A stretch of 22,408 bases of DNA from Elusimicrobiales bacterium (GTDB lineage Bacteria > Elusimicrobiota > Elusimicrobia > Elusimicrobiales > UBA9959): NCBI GenBank assembly GCA_049972095.1, contig JBMFKQ010000028.1, positions 1 through 22,408 of the forward strand, given 5' to 3'. Every line of letters begins with the position of its first letter. Position 1 is the stretch's first letter. Below are positions 3,001 through 9,000 of this stretch, piece by piece. The position numbers were made by a program.

Positions 3001-6000
3001 CTCTGTTTGTGATGTATTCCAATACAGTCGGAAGGATTGATATTATTATTATTGCAATTATTACATATGAAAAATTTCTTCTTACAAAATCAAGATTACC
3101 AAAAAAATATCCTGCACATAATAGAAAAACAACCCAAATTAAAGCCCCAGTTAGATTGTAGATCATAAATCTCATATATCCCATATCCCCAATGCCGGCA
3201 AGAAATGGAGCAAAGGTTCTTACAATAGGAATAAATCTTGCAATTATTATGGTTTTTCCACCGTATTTTTCATAAAAGCTATGAGTTCTATCAATGTATT
3301 CCTTTTTAAAGATAAAAGGATATTTTTTTACAGCCTTCTCCCCTAAAAATTTTCCTATGTGGTAATTAAAAGCATCACCAATAACAGCTGCGGTTAGTAT
3401 AACGGAGGCAGAGATATAAGGGTTTATAACCCCTCTCGCACTAAAAGCCCCACATGCAAAAAGAAGTGAATCGCCAGGGAAAAAAGGAGTTATAACCAAA
3501 CCTGTCTCACAGAATATTATGATGAAGAGTATAAGGTAAAACCATATTCCGGAATATGATATGACTAAATCAAGGTATCTGTCTATATGCAATATAAGAT
3601 CTAAAAATTTTAAAAGAATATCCATAATCTTATTAAAACTGAAGTATAAGATTTGTTCCTATTTGATAAGATATATAATCCTCTTGTTTTAGATATTTAT
3701 GCCAGAACCTTTGAAAAGAGGCATTTATACTAAGCCTTAGATTCTTTGTTGCCTCAACCTCAGCAGTTGATGTTAGAGAAAAAAGTCTGTTGTTATCGTT
3801 TACAGATATAGGGGATCTTCTTATGCTGTAGCTTGTATTTGTTGTCCATATTATTCTATTATCAAAGATTGTTTGGCGCATAAACGGAAGTTTAACATTC
3901 TTTGGCAGTTTCATATCAGCCCTTATAAGCACTGATGGAGTTATAACAGTGGTGTTTGTGATCACTATCCCAAGAGTTGAACGGGCAAAATCCTTTGAGT
4001 AATCCACCCTTGGTGTGAATCTGTAAGCTTTTACATCAAATAAGCCTTGCAGTGAAAATGTTTTTTTGTTAGTATATGATGTTATCTGATTGGCTATGAG
4101 GTTTTTTTTCTCACCTGTTTGATTTGAATACATCAGTGATGTATTGAGATAATTCATTAGTGTAAATCTGAGGTCAAAACCAAAATTTTTGTTCGTATCT
4201 TCTGTATTGTTGACAACCTCGGATATATTTTTTGAATACCTTATATTGGCTATCATATACCTTACCCATCTTGAAACTGAAAACATATCCTCAAGCTGGG
4301 ATATACTCAAAACAAAATCAGGAAGGGTTTTATTTTTTGTTCTTGTAAGAATACTAGTTGCATAACTATCCTGTTTTGAGTATGCGAAGTTGGATGTAAT
4401 GTTTATAGTCTCAAGCGCTTTTGCTCTGCCTAACAGATTCCAACCCTCAAATGGTTGTATTCTCATACCTGTAGAGTAACTATCTCTCATTGTTGCACTC
4501 TGTCTAATTGCAAAATCGGAGGAGGGCTCAAGTTTTTTTCTTATCCAAAGATATCTTTTCGAATCAAAACCCCTTTCAACATTATTCCACACATCCCCAT
4601 CCTGGAGCTGATAGTTTGAGGTTATGACCATTGTCCTTAATCCCTTTACACGAGGTGTTATCTCAGACATGCTTATATTTAGATTTATACCTCCATTTGC
4701 ATTTCTGGTTATATTTTTTATATCACCAACATTGTAAAATCGGCTTATCTGAGCGACTGTAAGTGTTGTGACGCTTATATTGTTGTTTTCGCTTGTTGTT
4801 ATGTTGTAGCTAATTGAGGGTCTAAGCCATCTGAAAATGGTTAAGTTTGAGTTAAATCCACTAGACTGCTGAAGATTCTTTGGATAGGAAAATGACTCAG
4901 AGTTACTGAAGGATCTTCTTTCGTATGTTTTTGATAATGAATAATTAGGGTTAAAATCAAAGAAATTAAGGATATTAAAGGTAAGTTTTGCTGTATACGA
5001 GTTTATTCTCTCATCACTATTATAATTAGAAGGAAGGTTTAAAAGAGATGAGTAGTTTGTTCTGTTGATTATGTATGTGTAGGATAAGGATGTATTTTTT
5101 GGAACAAGGGGGAAATTGAGGGGAGAGTTAAATGATGTTGAGGCAGAGTAGTTATGCTTTTCGTCTTTTCTGTTAAGAATATCATATTCTGTTGTGTTCC
5201 TTGAATAAGAGAGATCAACCTTTGGAATAAGACCTGGGGCAAAAGTCCCTCTTGCTGTTATGTCCTCATTTTTAACCCTTCCCTGCTGAAGGAGATTGAC
5301 AAGATTGTTATTGCCTGTGTTGTAGACATTTGGAGTTTGAGTTATCTTTCTTGAAAATGTGTAGCTTGTTGGGAAGAAAGAGGGTTTCATAAGTGTAAAA
5401 AATCCACTGTTCTCCTCAGAATCCTGATTTGTAATAGCACTTACAGGTGTTTGAAACATCCTATCAATATATCTGTGTTTACCTCCAAATGAAACAAAGC
5501 CGGGAATCTCAAAATTACCTTGAACCTTCCTTGCGCTTCCGACCTTCTTTATTGGTTTGGAGAGGAAAATATCATTGAGGTAAAGGCTCAAGTTGTGAGA
5601 TGAAGCATCATCAATATCAATGCCAACTATTATCTGGGCAACACTTTGAAGTGAAAAATTGCCCGATGTGGAGATTCTAATAGATGGGTCCATAGAAATC
5701 CATCTGTCAGCAAGCCCATCACCGTTTAGATCAAGTTGTTTTATCACAAACATTCTCCATCCTGTAAAGGAAAGAGGAATAGATAGTTTAAAATAGTTTG
5801 AAACATCACCCAACTTAAGATAAAGACTTGCAAAGCTATCAGGTGTCTTATTATAAACGAAAAATTTAAATTCTTTATGCTGAGATATATCTATAGGAAC
5901 TGAAAATCTTCTGTAAACATAAGATGTTGATGTGGATGTCCAGTTAGAAAAATCCAAGGCAATAGCCTGCTCCATAACATTGCTCTCACCACTCGATAGC

Positions 6001-9000
6001 TTCTGCTGACTGACACTTCCATAGAGTGTGTTATAAGCAGATGTTATCTCACCACCTGCGTTGAAAAGCGGGATATAACCTGGATTATCTATATTGTTAA
6101 TAGAATAAACATTGATACTTTCGCTTGCATTCGTTGAGAGACTTACATTCCATGTGTTTCCAACTACACTAAGGCGTGCAAGATATATCCTTCCTTTAAT
6201 TGGTGTGTTTGGAGTTTTTTTGAGAGATATTCTTGCAACCTTTATATTGGACCACCTATATGCTTCAGTGGAAGGGATAATAAGAGGGAAAACCCAGTTA
6301 TGCCAGCTGTCAAAGTTAATCTCATTTGTATTAAGAGATGATGTAATATCTGTAAAGTAGTTTCCAGCATAATAACCAAAATTACCACCTATTCCAGGAT
6401 TTCCTACATCAAGTTTGCCATTACCATCAAGATCCTGTGTATCTATTCTTCCATTGTTTTCTCCTATCCTTCTTGTCCCTCCCCCGATAGGTGCATAAAG
6501 CCATCCTTTATCTTCATCCGGTGATAGAACTCCATCACAGTTTATATCCTCAGTCTTTGGAGCATTGTATATAATGCGCCCATTGGAACACACAAGAGTA
6601 ACACCACCACTACCATCAGAGTCTTCATTTATCTCTCCAAGCGTTAAGTTTAAAAGAGGGCCATAATCAGTAGAGCTACCTTTAAGTGTTAACTCAATGG
6701 AGTTTTTCCTTGAGAAATCTATGCCAATCTTTGAAAAGACATAAACTATTGAGACCTCGCTTGAAACAGAAAAATCATAATCAATCTCAAGAATCTGCTG
6801 TTTTGAGTTATCCGGTGATGAGGGATTTATTGTTTTTTTCTCAACCTCAATAGTATTTGTGAAGATTGAGTCAGCATTTGATGGTACCCCCGATGGGTTT
6901 GATGCTATTAGCCAGAGGTTTTTATCAAGGGATGCTATATCCTCCTGCTTTGAGCTTTCCATATTATCTATTATGGCATTTTCATTTACATTTGGATTGA
7001 GAGCTGAACCTGCCACCTCAGCCGAAAGTGATGTCTTAAGTCCAAAGATATTCAGATCTCTCAGTGATGTATCTGCATCATAAACAAGTAGATTTGATAC
7101 TATATCAGTTATCTGAGGAGCCTTTGGCTGTTTGTTTGAGCTTTGATAGAGAAGGGTTGAACCAACAGAGAGATATCTTGAAAAATCATAAGATGCTCTA
7201 CCTCCAACCAGACTCTGATTAGAGCTTCCAAAGGGTGAAACCTCATAGTATATATCTATAATACTTTCGGGTGCTATGATCTCAGAGTTATAGAATGTCA
7301 AAAATCCTGAATCGTAGTCTATATAATAATCTTGATTCTTCACAAGTCTTTTACCATCAACCCTTATGACCTCAGAGTTAAGAACTATATTTGGTTCAAG
7401 ATAGAATGTATTTATTCTGTAATAAAACTCAATATGAATTATCCTTTTGGTAACAGGTGAGGCAGAGTATGTTTGCGGGTCAGGGGATGTTGGATCATTC
7501 TCAGATGTAAATGGTTTTTTGAGTTTAATTATCCCTTGTTCAAAATCAACCTCTATGGTGTCTGGATATTTCTGTGGTGGATTTAAGAAAGGGCCTATCT
7601 CCTGTCTATTAAGATTTTGAACCTTGAGTATAAAATTGCCAAGGCCATTATCTCTGACTATATTGGTCTGTCCTATTGAATAATAGGTCTTTATCTCATT
7701 CCTCCATCCTTTTTCTGAAGGATTTGATATGTAGATATCATTGTAGGATTTTAGAATTTTATACCTTCCACTTGAGTTTTCATCTCTCAACCAGCTACCA
7801 TTACTTTTTTGATAATCAATGATAACAACATCCTGAGGATTTAGACTTCTTGCAAAAACAATCTCACCGTTGTTATAATCTATTGTATAGTCAACACCTC
7901 TTGTAAGCAACTTAAACTTCCCTGTATAGGTCACAGATTGGGATGTTATATCATCAGCTGTAATTGATGATATAATAACTCCATCAATAGGTTGAGAGGT
8001 CTGCTGGTCTATATAAACCTTTTCACTACCTGGCTTTATTGGGAGAAATGATGTGCTTGAGAATGTTATATCGTAGTATTTTCTTCTTATGTATGAAGTG
8101 TCTGGTATATCCACAGTTCTAAATTGTGTGTTTCCCTTAAACTGTTTTGTTTTTGTTTGCCCTTTTGTCCTTGAGCCTATAATAGTTCCTTTAAACCTAC
8201 CTGTTTTCAAATCTGCTCTTATACCAAAAAGCTGTTTGTTGTAAGAAACAAACTCTGTTGAGGGAAGAGAAAGATCTATATCACCAAAGGATACATTCTG
8301 AACAACCTCCTGAGGCTCACCTTGATAAACTATGGAGATATCCTGCTTATCTGACTTAGTATCATCATAATCAACATTAACTGTTATCTTATTACCAATC
8401 CTTCCTTGCATTCTGAGCTGAAGCTGCTGTGTTATATCAAGATTGGAAGTAGATTGGTTTCTTATGTTTGCTGTCTGTGGGTTTATATATTTTTTGCCTG
8501 AATAATTAAGAGATATAACCTTTCTTCCGCTAACATTCAAGGATGTACCACTGTCAAGAAACTCAATCTGAGGTCCAAGGGTTGGCAACGATGTGTCAAT
8601 CTCAACAGTGCTATTCAAGGTAGGAGGTGTGCTGTAGACTATATCACCTTTTTCAACTTTTTCCAAAAACTTATTCCATTCATCTTGTGAAAAGCCTATA
8701 CCTGACTCCTTTTTTAAAACATTCAATTTTTTATCCTCCTTTTTGACATCGCTCACATCTATATATGAGGTTGAAGCACAGAGTATATCATCATAGGAGG
8801 ATAGACTTTCTATAAAATCATTGAAATCAAAGGAAAAAAGATTTTGGCAAAAAAAAATATATAAAACAAGAATTAATAGCATCATTCAAAACACTCAAAA
8901 CATTTCAAGTTCAGCAATATAATAAATTATATATAATAGAGTTATTGTTTTATGCAGATAAAAAGTATTGACAGAATGATTATCAGATATTTCTCAATTT

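Follow-up and report, generated by a model that had tools for sequence, protein, structure and literature searches.

A gene in the 22,408-nucleotide contig analyzed here (the window) from an Elusimicrobiales bacterium encodes a 1,750-residue protein that, judged by sequence, is securely assigned as a distant but true homolog of SprA/Sov, the outer-membrane translocon of type IX secretion systems (T9SS), as the genome-wide survey's note on this genome had proposed. We think it fairly probable that this divergent giant barrel is the export pore for surface proteins that carry a T9SS-type C-terminal domain (CTD), and that it works with private PorV-like carriers and without GldLM or GldKN. The survey's wider suggestion of type IX-like parts is supported by the homology of pore, carrier, and tag and by the gene pairing of cargo and carrier throughout the phylum.

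A divergent SprA/Sov homolog

The SprA model (TIGR04189) matches the 1,750-residue protein in five stretches with a total of 133 bits (E 6.5e-39), below the NCBIfam cut-off of 200 bits, which is also reached by none of 20 relatives (94.8 to 187.5 bits). TIGR04189 is the sole family match for this protein and for all 20 of those relatives (13 families), and in a six-frame search of the genome it matches this gene only. Two stretches previously reported below the cut-off were reproduced in that search (model 96-254, E 1.0e-23; model 603-689, E 1.2e-13), as was the ESM Atlas result, in which 28 of the 30 nearest named clusters carry PF14349 (best score, 0.99). The Pfam SprA_N family itself (PF14349) is absent from the protein at E<=10 and from the N-terminal parts of all 21 Elusimicrobiota proteins at E<=0.01, and it occurs in 4 of their 21 C-parts (E<=0.01); Pfam as a whole returned no family for the protein at E<=10 except a chance-level FG-GAP match.

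A single-sequence search with the protein against solved structures gave no match. When a family profile (A1) was compared with 177,635 PDB sequences, it matched only Flavobacterium johnsoniae SprA (6h3i_A), at E 3e-21 and in four collinear stretches, and positions 241-600 of a profile of the C-part (A2) matched residues 1156-1571 of the same structure (E 5.7e-18). One protein from Desantisbacteria scores above the SprA cut-off (203.5 bits) and aligns with ours by BLASTP over ~1,675 columns (E 1e-123). FCPU426 proteins that also exceed it (265 to 269 bits) align by hhalign with a probability of 100 over 1,380 columns, the homology between the two families reaching position 1622 of the 1,784-column profile A1, near the C terminus. 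It is this end-to-end alignment with cut-off-passing relatives, together with the exclusive match to SprA in the PDB, that makes the homology secure.

The layout of the protein is given in Table 1. A sequence reading predicts that it is targeted to the outer membrane: residues 1-21 are its sole hydrophobic 19-mer segment, and its terminal ...QF is of the beta-signal type, with Q1749 and F1750 invariant among 39 homologs. The block at residues 113-271, which matches 6h3i_A with a profile stretch of E 8.8e-11, is the most invariant portion across the family; residues 499-584 hold the third and last "DYxIDYxxG" beta module and the strands after it; and the middle region contains acidic DxDxDG-like motifs. 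CBM_11 matched in 2 of 21 relatives, somewhere within residues 560 to the end. By rough count, 27 to 35 amphipathic segments lie in the C-terminal region, and a crude count for the presumed barrel regions gives 37 to 48, next to the 36 strands of the capped, laterally open SprA barrel.

Table 1. Features of the SprA-like gene, its product, and the adjoining lptF/lptG pair (positions in the window)
Feature	Position	Strand	Basis or remark
SprA/Sov-like outer-membrane protein gene (P0001)	3633..8885	-	Single ORF, 1,750 aa, ATG start
Signal-like hydrophobic N-terminal segment, aa 1-21	8823..8885	-	Sequence reading; cleavage site putative
First barrel-strand block, aa 113-271, homologous to SprA 160-292	8073..8549	-	TIGR04189 96-254 and 6h3i_A
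aa 499-584, homologous to SprA ~701-778	7134..7391	-	TIGR04189 603-689; collinear stretch 2 against 6h3i_A
Middle region, ~aa 800-1160, homologous to SprA 1156-1571	5406..6488, approximate	-	Profiles A2 and A1 (stretches 3 and 4)
Strand-rich C-terminal region, aa 1111-1750, end ...LILQF	3636..5555	-	Beta-signal-type end; conserved QF
lptF	8952-10064	+	PF03739, E 5e-43
lptG	10061-11089	+	PF03739, E 2e-29

Distribution of the SprA-like family

The SprA-like gene is present in 224 of 234 good Elusimicrobiota genomes, mostly as a single copy, and the family-wide presence claimed earlier holds for 21/21 genomes of its own family and 86/88 genomes of the order's second family. Pore and carrier genes co-occur throughout the phylum, with matches to the PorV_fam model in 34 of 35 Elusimicrobiota genomes. 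In one genus (g49), PorV-like genes are also missing from all 13 SprA-negative genomes; in genome G013 (99% complete) the pore gene is missing, yet two PorV-like genes are kept.

Among 150 proteins listed as matches of an N-terminal profile, all match at E 1e-77 or better; the ones whose source was looked up or traced belong to FCPU426, Cand. Desantisbacteria, Cand. Aerophobetes, and Cand. Coatesbacteria. The SprA-like proteins of these four candidate phyla, which are unannotated or called "hypothetical," belong, by this likeness, to the same subfamily as the Elusimicrobiota protein. They are 1,550 to 2,500 aa long; fn3-like additions at the N terminus or a PorG-like domain occur in some, and several pass the SprA cut-off (203 to 269 bits), whereas the 21 tested Elusimicrobiota proteins do not. 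FCPU426 genomes resemble those of Elusimicrobiota in their PorV_fam matches (32 to 46) but differ in having FliG of normal length only.

PorV-like carriers and CTD cargo

As reported for this genome, six places exceed the PorV_fam cut-off (NF033709), with about five weaker ones besides. The barrels score 84 to 160 bits on this model and higher on the PorQ model than on the PorV model, but all stay below the equivalog cut-offs for PorV and PorQ. A profile built from 10 cargo-adjacent barrels matches the solved PorV chain 6h3i_F at E 3.8e-25 (the runner-up, TodX, at 0.005), which identifies them, at the level of profile comparison, as true PorV homologs. PorV-like barrels alone do not prove a T9SS, since Bacteroides thetaiotaomicron, which is not known to have a T9SS, has a PorV_fam match above the cut-off and, like all others among the 14 control genomes, no SprA match. 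Two Elusimicrobiota genomes (G142 and G090) have 21 to 23 PorV-like matches but no CTD at E<=1e-6.

The reported T9SS sorting domains likewise hold up: TIGR04183 is above its cut-off at five places, and our own HMM finds nine CTD proteins in the genome. A profile of the nine tails matches the C-terminal ends of 5m11_A (E 8e-12), which we take to be PorZ, and of PorU (6za2; E 3e-6), as well as 8glk_D, a substrate CTD caught within the SprA complex (E 2e-5); the NCBIfam T9SS_PorZ result agrees with the PorZ assignment. Going by these matches to solved proteins, the tails are true T9SS CTDs, and the cargo types (subtilase, thermolysin-like peptidase, and Kelch/fn3 and PQQ-propeller giants) match those usual for T9SS.

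Where four PorV-like genes beside giant CTD proteins had been noted, we find six tight cargo-then-PorV pairs (contigs C12, C15, C7, C18, C11, and C24), with gaps of -4 to +34 bases. Six of the nine CTD genes are directly followed by a PorV-like gene in a genome that holds 12 such genes among 1,318 ORFs; when genes were placed at random, at most two pairs arose in 20,000 trials. Inspection by eye of 11 relatives (10 families) added at least 25 pairs. The earlier worry that the order's second family has almost no PorV is not borne out, as its reduced genomes keep one CTD-cargo/PorV pair in 4/4 cases examined. Cargo-then-carrier pairing is thus supported as a phylum-wide arrangement.

Genomic neighborhood of the pore gene

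The SprA-like gene lies head to head with the genome's sole lptF/lptG pair (8952..11089) across a spacer of 66 bases, and an LptF/G-family neighbor occupies position -1 or -2 in 18 of 21 loci. The conserved neighbors are lptF/lptG and a ComF-like gene, with no conserved secretion-gene neighbor found in the loci examined; lptF/lptG are at most a putative functional part of the system. This setting, along with the near-universal, single-copy state of the gene in the phylum and the occurrence of PorV_fam barrels in a control genome with no SprA match, would also fit an LptFG-linked housekeeping role in envelope biogenesis, with the CTD/PorV pairs exported otherwise or each barrel exporting its own neighbor. 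We judge such a role improbable: pore, carrier, and tag each have a homolog within a single solved complex, they are lost jointly in reduced genomes and retained jointly in the order's second family, and an LptD-like gene exists separately.

A FliG/MotAB cassette

On C23, and again on C31/C15, FliG/MotAB genes adjoin PorV-like genes, as described before; the genome has two such sets. In 16 of the 20 loci (15 families), a PorV-TPR gene directly precedes the gene for a membrane-anchored FliG-TPR protein, usually with a CTD protein before and MotA/MotB after, which gives a conserved cassette order of CTD-cargo, PorV-TPR, FliG-TPR, and MotAB. The MotA/MotB pair has plug and OmpA domains, and FliG has its middle and C-terminal domains. 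These parts resemble a flagellar rotor and stator, and the cassette logic recalls GldLM in that a motor would act on a carrier-bound surface protein. Unlike a flagellum, the cassette comes with no export gate (FlhA is missing in 24/24 genomes; four controls match), its FliG carries a membrane anchor and TPRs as fused parts, and it is linked in one operon with genes for a CTD protein and a PorV-TPR barrel; it has no homology to GldL or GldM.

The survey had named the FliF/FliG-MotAB sets as its best candidate for the energizer that takes the place of GldLM in the pathway as a whole. The cassette itself stands, and its conserved order, the two sets in this genome, and the missing export gate all speak for such a reading, whose support is one of gene neighborhood. 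Its general role does not stand: of 24 genomes, 6 (G011, G066, G122, G043, G016, and G045) lack FliG_C while retaining the SprA-like gene and 3 to 13 PorV-like matches, so the sets can hardly be a general replacement of GldLM. Ordinary cargo/carrier pairs, moreover, are far from motor genes, and the SprA-like gene never adjoins FliG/MotAB genes in the loci examined. We give a general energizer little credence; the adjacency in 16/20 loci instead makes the motor look dedicated to one cargo/carrier pair.

Known motor and accessory components

GldK, GldL, GldM, GldN, and PorP (TIGR03519), which the survey had failed to find, go unmatched in the genome at a threshold of E<=1, in searches whose 14 control genomes are all T9SS-free. 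Six-frame searches for GldL and GldM, independent of gene calls, covered 34 relatives (20 families, 92 to 100% complete, four of them single-contig) beside the same kind of T9SS-free controls; GldM matched in none and GldL in one, at a chance-level 15.8 bits. GldM also has no match in four FCPU426 genomes. The PorU model (NF033707) matched only at positions 991-1095, which are the CTDs of other proteins, and the sortase was not found.

GldKLMN-type parts could be present and yet missed, if they have diverged beyond the reach of the TIGRFAM models or lie in sequence absent from the assembly. The use of T9SS-free controls leaves room for this, as does the divergence of SprA, PorV, and LptD here, which curated cut-offs or Pfam models miss. 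Against it stand the six-frame searches of many near-complete genomes and the FCPU426 result, and we hold it to be as doubtful as a general energizer.

At E<=1 the genome has no match to LptD (PF04453) or LptD_N (PF03968), although nine control genomes match LptD_N; together with the lptF/lptG synteny, this could suggest that the giant barrel substitutes for LptD as the outer-membrane LPS translocon, a highly improbable reading that is refuted by a separate 675-aa LptD-like gene at C10:26446-28473(-), a full-length homolog (best E 1e-45) of the LptD-like frames of relatives, 32 of 34 of which have LptD_N (including in frames of 620 to 830 aa), and P0001 has no LptD-type match (LptD_N jellyroll or LptD barrel).

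Comparison with known systems and a proposed export route

SprA (F. johnsoniae; PDB 6H3I/6H3J and 8GL6-8GLN) and Sov (Porphyromonas gingivalis) are the closest counterparts of the Elusimicrobiota protein, which shares with them its giant size, a beta-signal-type end, and co-occurring PorV homologs and CTD cargo. It is homologous to SprA along most of its length, collinear with residues 160-292, 701-778, and 1156-1571, but is ~650 residues shorter (1,750 versus 2,403), and its final ~590 residues have no detectable likeness to solved SprA in the A1 and A2 profile searches. It also differs in its host phylum, for which no T9SS has been reported, in the undetected GldKLMN, PorU, and PorP, and in the lptF/lptG genes conserved alongside.

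For the carriers, two precedents are informative. In the P. gingivalis attachment complex, the PorZ-PorQ and PorU-PorV couples each consist of a secreted, CTD-retaining protein held by a PorV/PorQ-family barrel, as outlined in Glew 2017 (PMC5562754). The barrels studied here lean toward PorQ, and the highest scores of the tails are those against the CTDs of PorZ and PorU; in Elusimicrobiota, however, barrel anchoring would be the rule for ordinary cargo (proteases and adhesin-like giants), the pairs are gene-adjacent, and a sortase or A-LPS attachment step is not apparent. Where type B CTD cargo is served by PorP/SprF-like carriers, as in SprB-SprF, a cargo-specific carrier, its gene next to that of the cargo, anchors the cargo, according to the account in Lauber 2024 (PMC10994853). 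Likewise, the carrier genes here lie beside the cargo genes, and one pair would be tied to a motor-driven system; in contrast, the carriers belong to the PorV/PorQ family rather than to PorP, the CTDs are type A-like (TIGR04183), and the motor parts resemble FliG/MotAB rather than GldLM.

From these likenesses we propose that Sec takes the cargo over the inner membrane and that the SprA-like pore is then entered from the periplasm. A 14-strand PorV/PorQ-like barrel docked at the pore would catch the CTD with its extracellular loops, and the cargo would exit sideways, bound to this carrier. Most cargoes would have a carrier of their own, whose gene immediately follows that of the cargo and is often in translational coupling with it. 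Because no PorU sortase was found, the CTD probably stays uncleaved, and the cargo would remain anchored on its carrier. The GldLM motor and the GldKN hub would not be part of the system, and in most families one cargo/carrier pair per genome would be wired to its own FliG-like/MotAB unit. In Bacteroidota, the release of the carrier-cargo complex requires energy, as stated in Lauber 2024 (PMC10994853); this counts against the proposal, in which any general energy source is hypothetical. If the pathway is functional, as we infer, then the presence of pore, carrier, and tag where the known motor genes are missing points to a simpler export route outside Bacteroidota.

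A distant homologue of SprA in Elusimicrobiota

The SprA-like gene, one open frame that begins with ATG, encodes 1750 aa. No Pfam family was found on its product, P0001, and a single NCBIfam family, TIGR04189 ("T9SS outer membrane translocon Sov/SprA"), matches it in five stretches with 133 bits (E 6.5e-39), below the curated cut-off of 200 bits. When the whole assembly (1.44 Mb in 58 contigs, 96.5% complete) was searched in six frames with TIGR04189, this gene was the only place matched, and the two stretches quoted in the genome-wide survey's note (model positions 96-254 and 603-689) were recovered identically; the presence of SprA_N on 28 of the 30 nearest named clusters of the ESM Atlas was reproduced as well. 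Homologues of P0001 fall into 334 clusters; in the best 120 the length stays within 1706-1861 aa, and those with a name are listed as "hypothetical" proteins from Elusimicrobia.

Among 177635 distinct PDB sequences, a profile of 39 homologues matches Flavobacterium johnsoniae SprA only (6H3I/6H3J and the 8GL* complexes; E 3e-21), in four collinear stretches (profile/SprA residues 148-279/160-292, 520-597/701-778, 969-1058/1313-1403, and 1082-1162/1465-1546). A profile of residues 560-1750 alone matches SprA residues 1156-1571 (E 5.7e-18). SprA is reached by profiles only, a single-sequence phmmer search of the PDB with P0001 having given no match; no match to solved SprA was detected in the last ~590 residues, and the Pfam SprA_N model matched none of 21 N-terminal parts and 4 of 21 C-terminal parts.

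The N-terminal 640 residues, used as a profile against 1.84 billion cluster representatives, recover 3021 proteins at E<=0.001, and the best 150 of these include proteins of Candidatus Aerophobetes (1567 aa), Candidatus Desantisbacteria (1622 aa), and candidate division FCPU426 (about 2100-2200 aa). Several relatives from outside Elusimicrobiota exceed the SprA cut-off (203.5, 252, 265, and 269 bits on TIGR04189), and the others, together with all 20 Elusimicrobiota relatives tested, fall below it at 95-193 bits. The alignment of P0001 with the Desantisbacteria protein spans about 1675 columns (E 1e-123), and that with a profile of the FCPU426 proteins spans 1380 (probability 100). A contig scan for related loci returned records of FCPU426, Coatesbacteria, Spirochaetia, and Elusimicrobia, and none of Bacteroidota. 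P0001 has a hydrophobic N-terminus and a C-terminal ...QF that is invariant among homologues, and the number of its amphipathic segments would fit a very large barrel, although this measure of hydrophobic alternation is crude and also scores beta-sandwich domains.

The relationship to SprA proposed by the survey is thus borne out by the profile matches to solved structures and by full-length alignments to relatives that pass the cut-off, and P0001 is almost certainly a SprA homologue. Judged by sequence, its family occupies the low-scoring end of a continuous range that extends to annotated SprA; Elusimicrobiota members are labelled "hypothetical" because their scores lie just under the curated cut-off. 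One SprA-like protein of 2486 aa from a MAG labelled "bacterium" (P0257) also matches the T9SS PorG model at its N-terminus (43.9 bits) and is a possible PorG-SprA fusion.

Candidate cargo proteins and their putative carriers

Six PorV_fam matches over the cut-off, plus weaker ones, agree with the inventory of carrier barrels drawn up in the survey, and T9SS sorting domains (TIGR04183) were confirmed over the cut-off at five places in the genome. In six large proteins (1041-2424 aa), the terminal domain has the pattern PNP...GVY...K-x-I-I-K/R seen in T9SS type A C-terminal sorting domains (CTDs); elsewhere these proteins carry PQQ propeller, Kelch/fn3, thermolysin-like peptidase, fn3, and FlgD-Ig domains. 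Each of the six genes is followed on the same strand, at a gap of -4 to +34 bases, by a gene for a PorV_fam barrel of 307-358 aa. Overall, a PorV-like gene lies directly after six of nine CTD genes, against a maximum of two in 20000 random placements; the HMMs used here were built from this genome's own sequences, and four of the five independent over-cut-off TIGR04183 matches are likewise paired.

A profile of ten such cargo-adjacent barrels finds solved PorV (6h3i_F, E 3.8e-25) far ahead of FadL/TodX proteins in the PDB, and on NCBIfam models the barrels score higher as PorQ (50-109 bits) than as PorV (19-68 bits), in both cases under the equivalog cut-offs. Barrels of this family are not a specific T9SS marker, since the control Bacteroides thetaiotaomicron, which is not known to have a T9SS, exceeds the PorV_fam cut-off and is not matched by SprA. 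In the PDB, a profile of nine tails matches the C-terminal domains of 5m11_A (which we take to be PorZ, in agreement with the NCBIfam T9SS_PorZ model) and PorU, as well as a substrate CTD trapped inside the SprA complex. Glew 2017 (PMC5562754) describes PorZ and PorU as T9SS proteins that retain their CTD and are held on PorQ and PorV.

Across the phylum, 35 chosen genomes from 20 families were searched for PorV_fam, and 34 are matched, as a rule with 10-45 matches each; at E<=1e-6, 21 of 31 genomes have CTDs. Comparing the two lists by eye, we counted at least 25 more pairs of a CTD gene followed by a PorV-like gene; they are spread over 11 genomes of 10 families, and their two genes lie 85-379 bases apart. 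Cargo-then-carrier pairing is general in the phylum. The second family of the order had been reported to keep the pore but almost no PorV. Its reduced genomes have one PorV-like gene (~330 aa, 77-87 bits), and in all four genomes examined, this gene directly follows one for a CTD protein of 1171-1605 aa (own HMM, E 1e-12 to 6e-16). The pair adjoins Tad-pilus-like genes (loci L117-L120) and is the counterpart of a pair on contig C24 of the present genome, where a 1078 aa FlgD-Ig/CTD protein and a 318 aa barrel lie beside a Tad-type cluster of TadE, RcpC, a secretin, an ATPase, and two TadB/C-like genes.

In the genus with reduced genomes, loss of the pore goes with loss of PorV-like genes, which 0 of 13 pore-negative genomes have. 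There are exceptions: genome G013 keeps two PorV-like genes without a pore, and three further pore-negative assemblies keep PorV-like genes, perhaps through assembly gaps. Two other arrangements of CTDs were observed. Small proteins of 129-170 aa, with little beyond a signal-like start and a T9SS CTD, occur on contig C2 of this genome and at loci L081, L084, L093, and L096, some of them directly preceding genes for PorV-like barrels with a TPR region (PorV-TPR). In another genome, G284, twelve tandem genes on one strand have frames of 655-1653 aa, each with a terminal TIGR04183 match (E about 1e-7 to 1e-9).

Distribution and gene neighborhood

Of 301 genomes sampled across the phylum, 262 are matched by a profile of the SprA-like family. 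The gene is present in 224 of 234 genomes that are >=90% complete and in 92 of 98 genera, usually in a single full-length copy, and the misses cluster in one family (53 of 89 matched), mainly in one genus with genomes of 0.5-1.4 Mb.

With the window's own, 21 loci were compared; the other 20 belong to relatives in 13 families. Only two kinds of neighbor are conserved: an lptF/lptG pair, which faces the SprA-like gene head to head in 18 of the 21 loci (window included; L047-L066), and a ComF-like gene just downstream of it in 15 of 21, though not in the window. The pair in the window is the only one in this genome. The genes downstream of the SprA-like gene in the window lie beside it in 0 of 20 relatives and are not counted as parts of the system. 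A scan of window positions 900-9100 for promoters and terminators gave chance levels (44 sites versus 35.3±6.3 in shuffles, and 4 terminators versus 3.8). The data sets that hold at least half of the sequence words are hot-spring metagenomes from two studies; these are DNA sets, with no RNA set listed.

The synteny with lptFG, combined with the failure of the Pfam LptD and LptD_N models to match this genome at E<=1, raised the idea that the SprA-like barrel replaces LptD. We reject it: LptD_N is matched in 32 of 34 relatives, LptD-sized frames included, and a full-length homologue of these LptD-like proteins (675 aa, best E 1e-45) is encoded on contig C10. This protein was found only via the relatives' proteins and missed by both Pfam models, and LptA/LptD of this family are very divergent.

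Locations of the features discussed (window positions, or contig and positions)
Location	Strand	Feature
Window 1264-2082		Gene without assigned function, downstream of SprA-like gene
Window 2093-2917		Gene without assigned function, downstream of SprA-like gene
Window 2990-3625		DedA/VTT gene, downstream of SprA-like gene
Window 3633-8885	-	SprA-like gene (P0001)
Window 8952-11089		lptF/lptG
Window 12819-15998	-	LysM+FecR protein adjoining HAMP/PAS histidine kinase
Window 17068-19074	+	668 aa protein without family
Window 19209-20108	+	Two adjacent Hsp20 genes
Window 20778-20849	+	tRNA-Gln(CTG)
Window 21805-22407	+	MatE/polysaccharide-flippase-like gene, truncated by contig end
C1:58568-60271		Tol/Exb-like cluster
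C2:66016-66528		Small CTD protein
C10:26446-28473	-	LptD-like protein
C23:11613-21883		FliG/MotAB cassette 2
C24:11093-22329		CTD protein and barrel beside Tad-type cluster
C31:1-5011, continuing on C15:33707-36364		FliG/MotAB cassette 1 (split)
G284:C1:2185285-2224294		Twelve tandem CTD genes (other genome)

Motor components and the FliG-MotAB cassette

GldM, GldL, PorP, GldK, and GldN gave no match in this genome at E<=1, the same outcome as in the survey, and PorU was matched only through its C-terminal domain. Among 34 relatives, GldM was matched in none and GldL once, at 15.8 bits; GldM was also unmatched in five FCPU426/Spirochaetia genomes with SprA-like genes, and four FCPU426 genomes have 32-46 PorV_fam matches each. 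None of the 14 control genomes for the Gld, PorP, and PorU searches matches SprA, and the lack of a T9SS-positive control is the main weakness of the claim that the system is motor-less. On these uncontrolled searches, the motor is probably absent.

The survey's note had put forward FliF/FliG-MotAB sets as the best candidate to replace GldLM. These are not flagellar genes, because FlhA, of the flagellar export gate, is absent from all 24 genomes searched and is matched in flagellate controls. FliG_C is found in 18 of the 24, in frames of 480-860 aa, and the FliG-like proteins have a membrane segment ahead of the FliG domains. The linkage to carriers is real and striking: a gene for a PorV-like barrel whose C-terminal region carries TPRs (504-614 aa) immediately precedes the FliG-TPR gene in 16 of 20 loci from 15 families. 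The full order of the cassette (loci L081-L100) is CTD protein, PorV-TPR, membrane-anchored FliG_M/FliG_C-TPR protein, large coiled-coil protein, MotA, and MotB, of which the CTD protein before PorV-TPR and the coiled-coil/MotA/MotB genes after FliG-TPR are usual without being present in every locus. The present genome has two different cassettes, one of them split between contigs. The FliG-TPR family comprises 286 clusters at E<=1e-10, and among the best 120, all with an organism name are Elusimicrobia.

A general energizing role for the cassette is not supported, because six genomes without FliG_C (G011, G066, G122, G043, G016, and G045) keep the pore, with 3-13 PorV-like matches, and because motor genes never adjoin the pore gene or the ordinary cargo pairs. 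We read the cassette as a dedicated machine for one cargo/carrier pair, a logic that would be comparable to that of SprB-SprF on the GldLM-driven track. As for other energy sources, the genome has a Tol/Exb-like cluster, and nothing ties it to the secretion system. In the literature searched, including passages of PMC12505986, we found no such FliG/MotAB-PorV-TPR cassette. It offers a lead of its own, to a surface machine that is driven by a motor and may be new.

Comparison with known type IX secretion systems

Abby 2016 reports the T9SS from 60 of 97 Bacteroidetes genomes and from no clade outside them, Liu 2025 calls it a distinctive feature of the phylum Bacteroidota, and both, along with review abstracts, describe it as confined to Bacteroidetes or the FCB group. 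In the open-access literature searched, no paper was found on the T9SS, type IX secretion, or PorV in Elusimicrobia. In the mechanism described by Lauber 2024 (PMC10994853), SprA is a 36-strand capped barrel with a lateral opening, the CTD is taken by PorV or other carriers, and current models place the energy-requiring step at pulling the carrier-cargo complex off SprA. The elusimicrobial system is homologous to the T9SS in its three core parts, namely, the translocon, the carrier, and the tag, and would work like the translocon-carrier module of a T9SS; it differs in lacking matches for the motor, hub, and sortase and in falling short of the curated SprA score.

The survey's observation is therefore confirmed. 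Of its interpretation, the pore, carriers, tags, and pairing stand and the absence of the motor is probable, if uncontrolled, but FliG-MotAB as the general energizer is not supported. The best explanation, and one that we favor with some reserve, is a SprA-like pore that exports CTD cargo with PorV-like carriers and without GldLM/GldKN.

A wider reading, which we offer tentatively and which, taken as a whole, we consider rather doubtful, is that the translocon-carrier-tag core is much older and more widespread than Bacteroidota, that it runs without GldKLMN, and that motor coupling is an add-on. The core would then be the standard route of surface-protein export in Elusimicrobiota and several candidate phyla close to it (FCPU426, Desantisbacteria, and Aerophobetes), and motor coupling would have arisen more than once: Bacteroidota would have recruited GldLM with the GldKN/GldJ track, and Elusimicrobiota would have coupled one CTD protein/PorV-TPR pair to a MotAB stator and to a FliG-like rotor protein anchored in the membrane, the cells themselves being without a flagellum.

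Were this wider reading true, the cassette would represent an envelope-spanning machine of a new type, which might serve to move a surface adhesin. A phylum-wide SprA-PorV-CTD module that lacks GldKLMN would place the origin of the translocon outside the Bacteroidota/FCB group and would supply natural "motor-less" systems for asking what the T9SS motor is needed for. It would also explain how the many giant surface proteins of the poorly known phylum Elusimicrobiota are exported.
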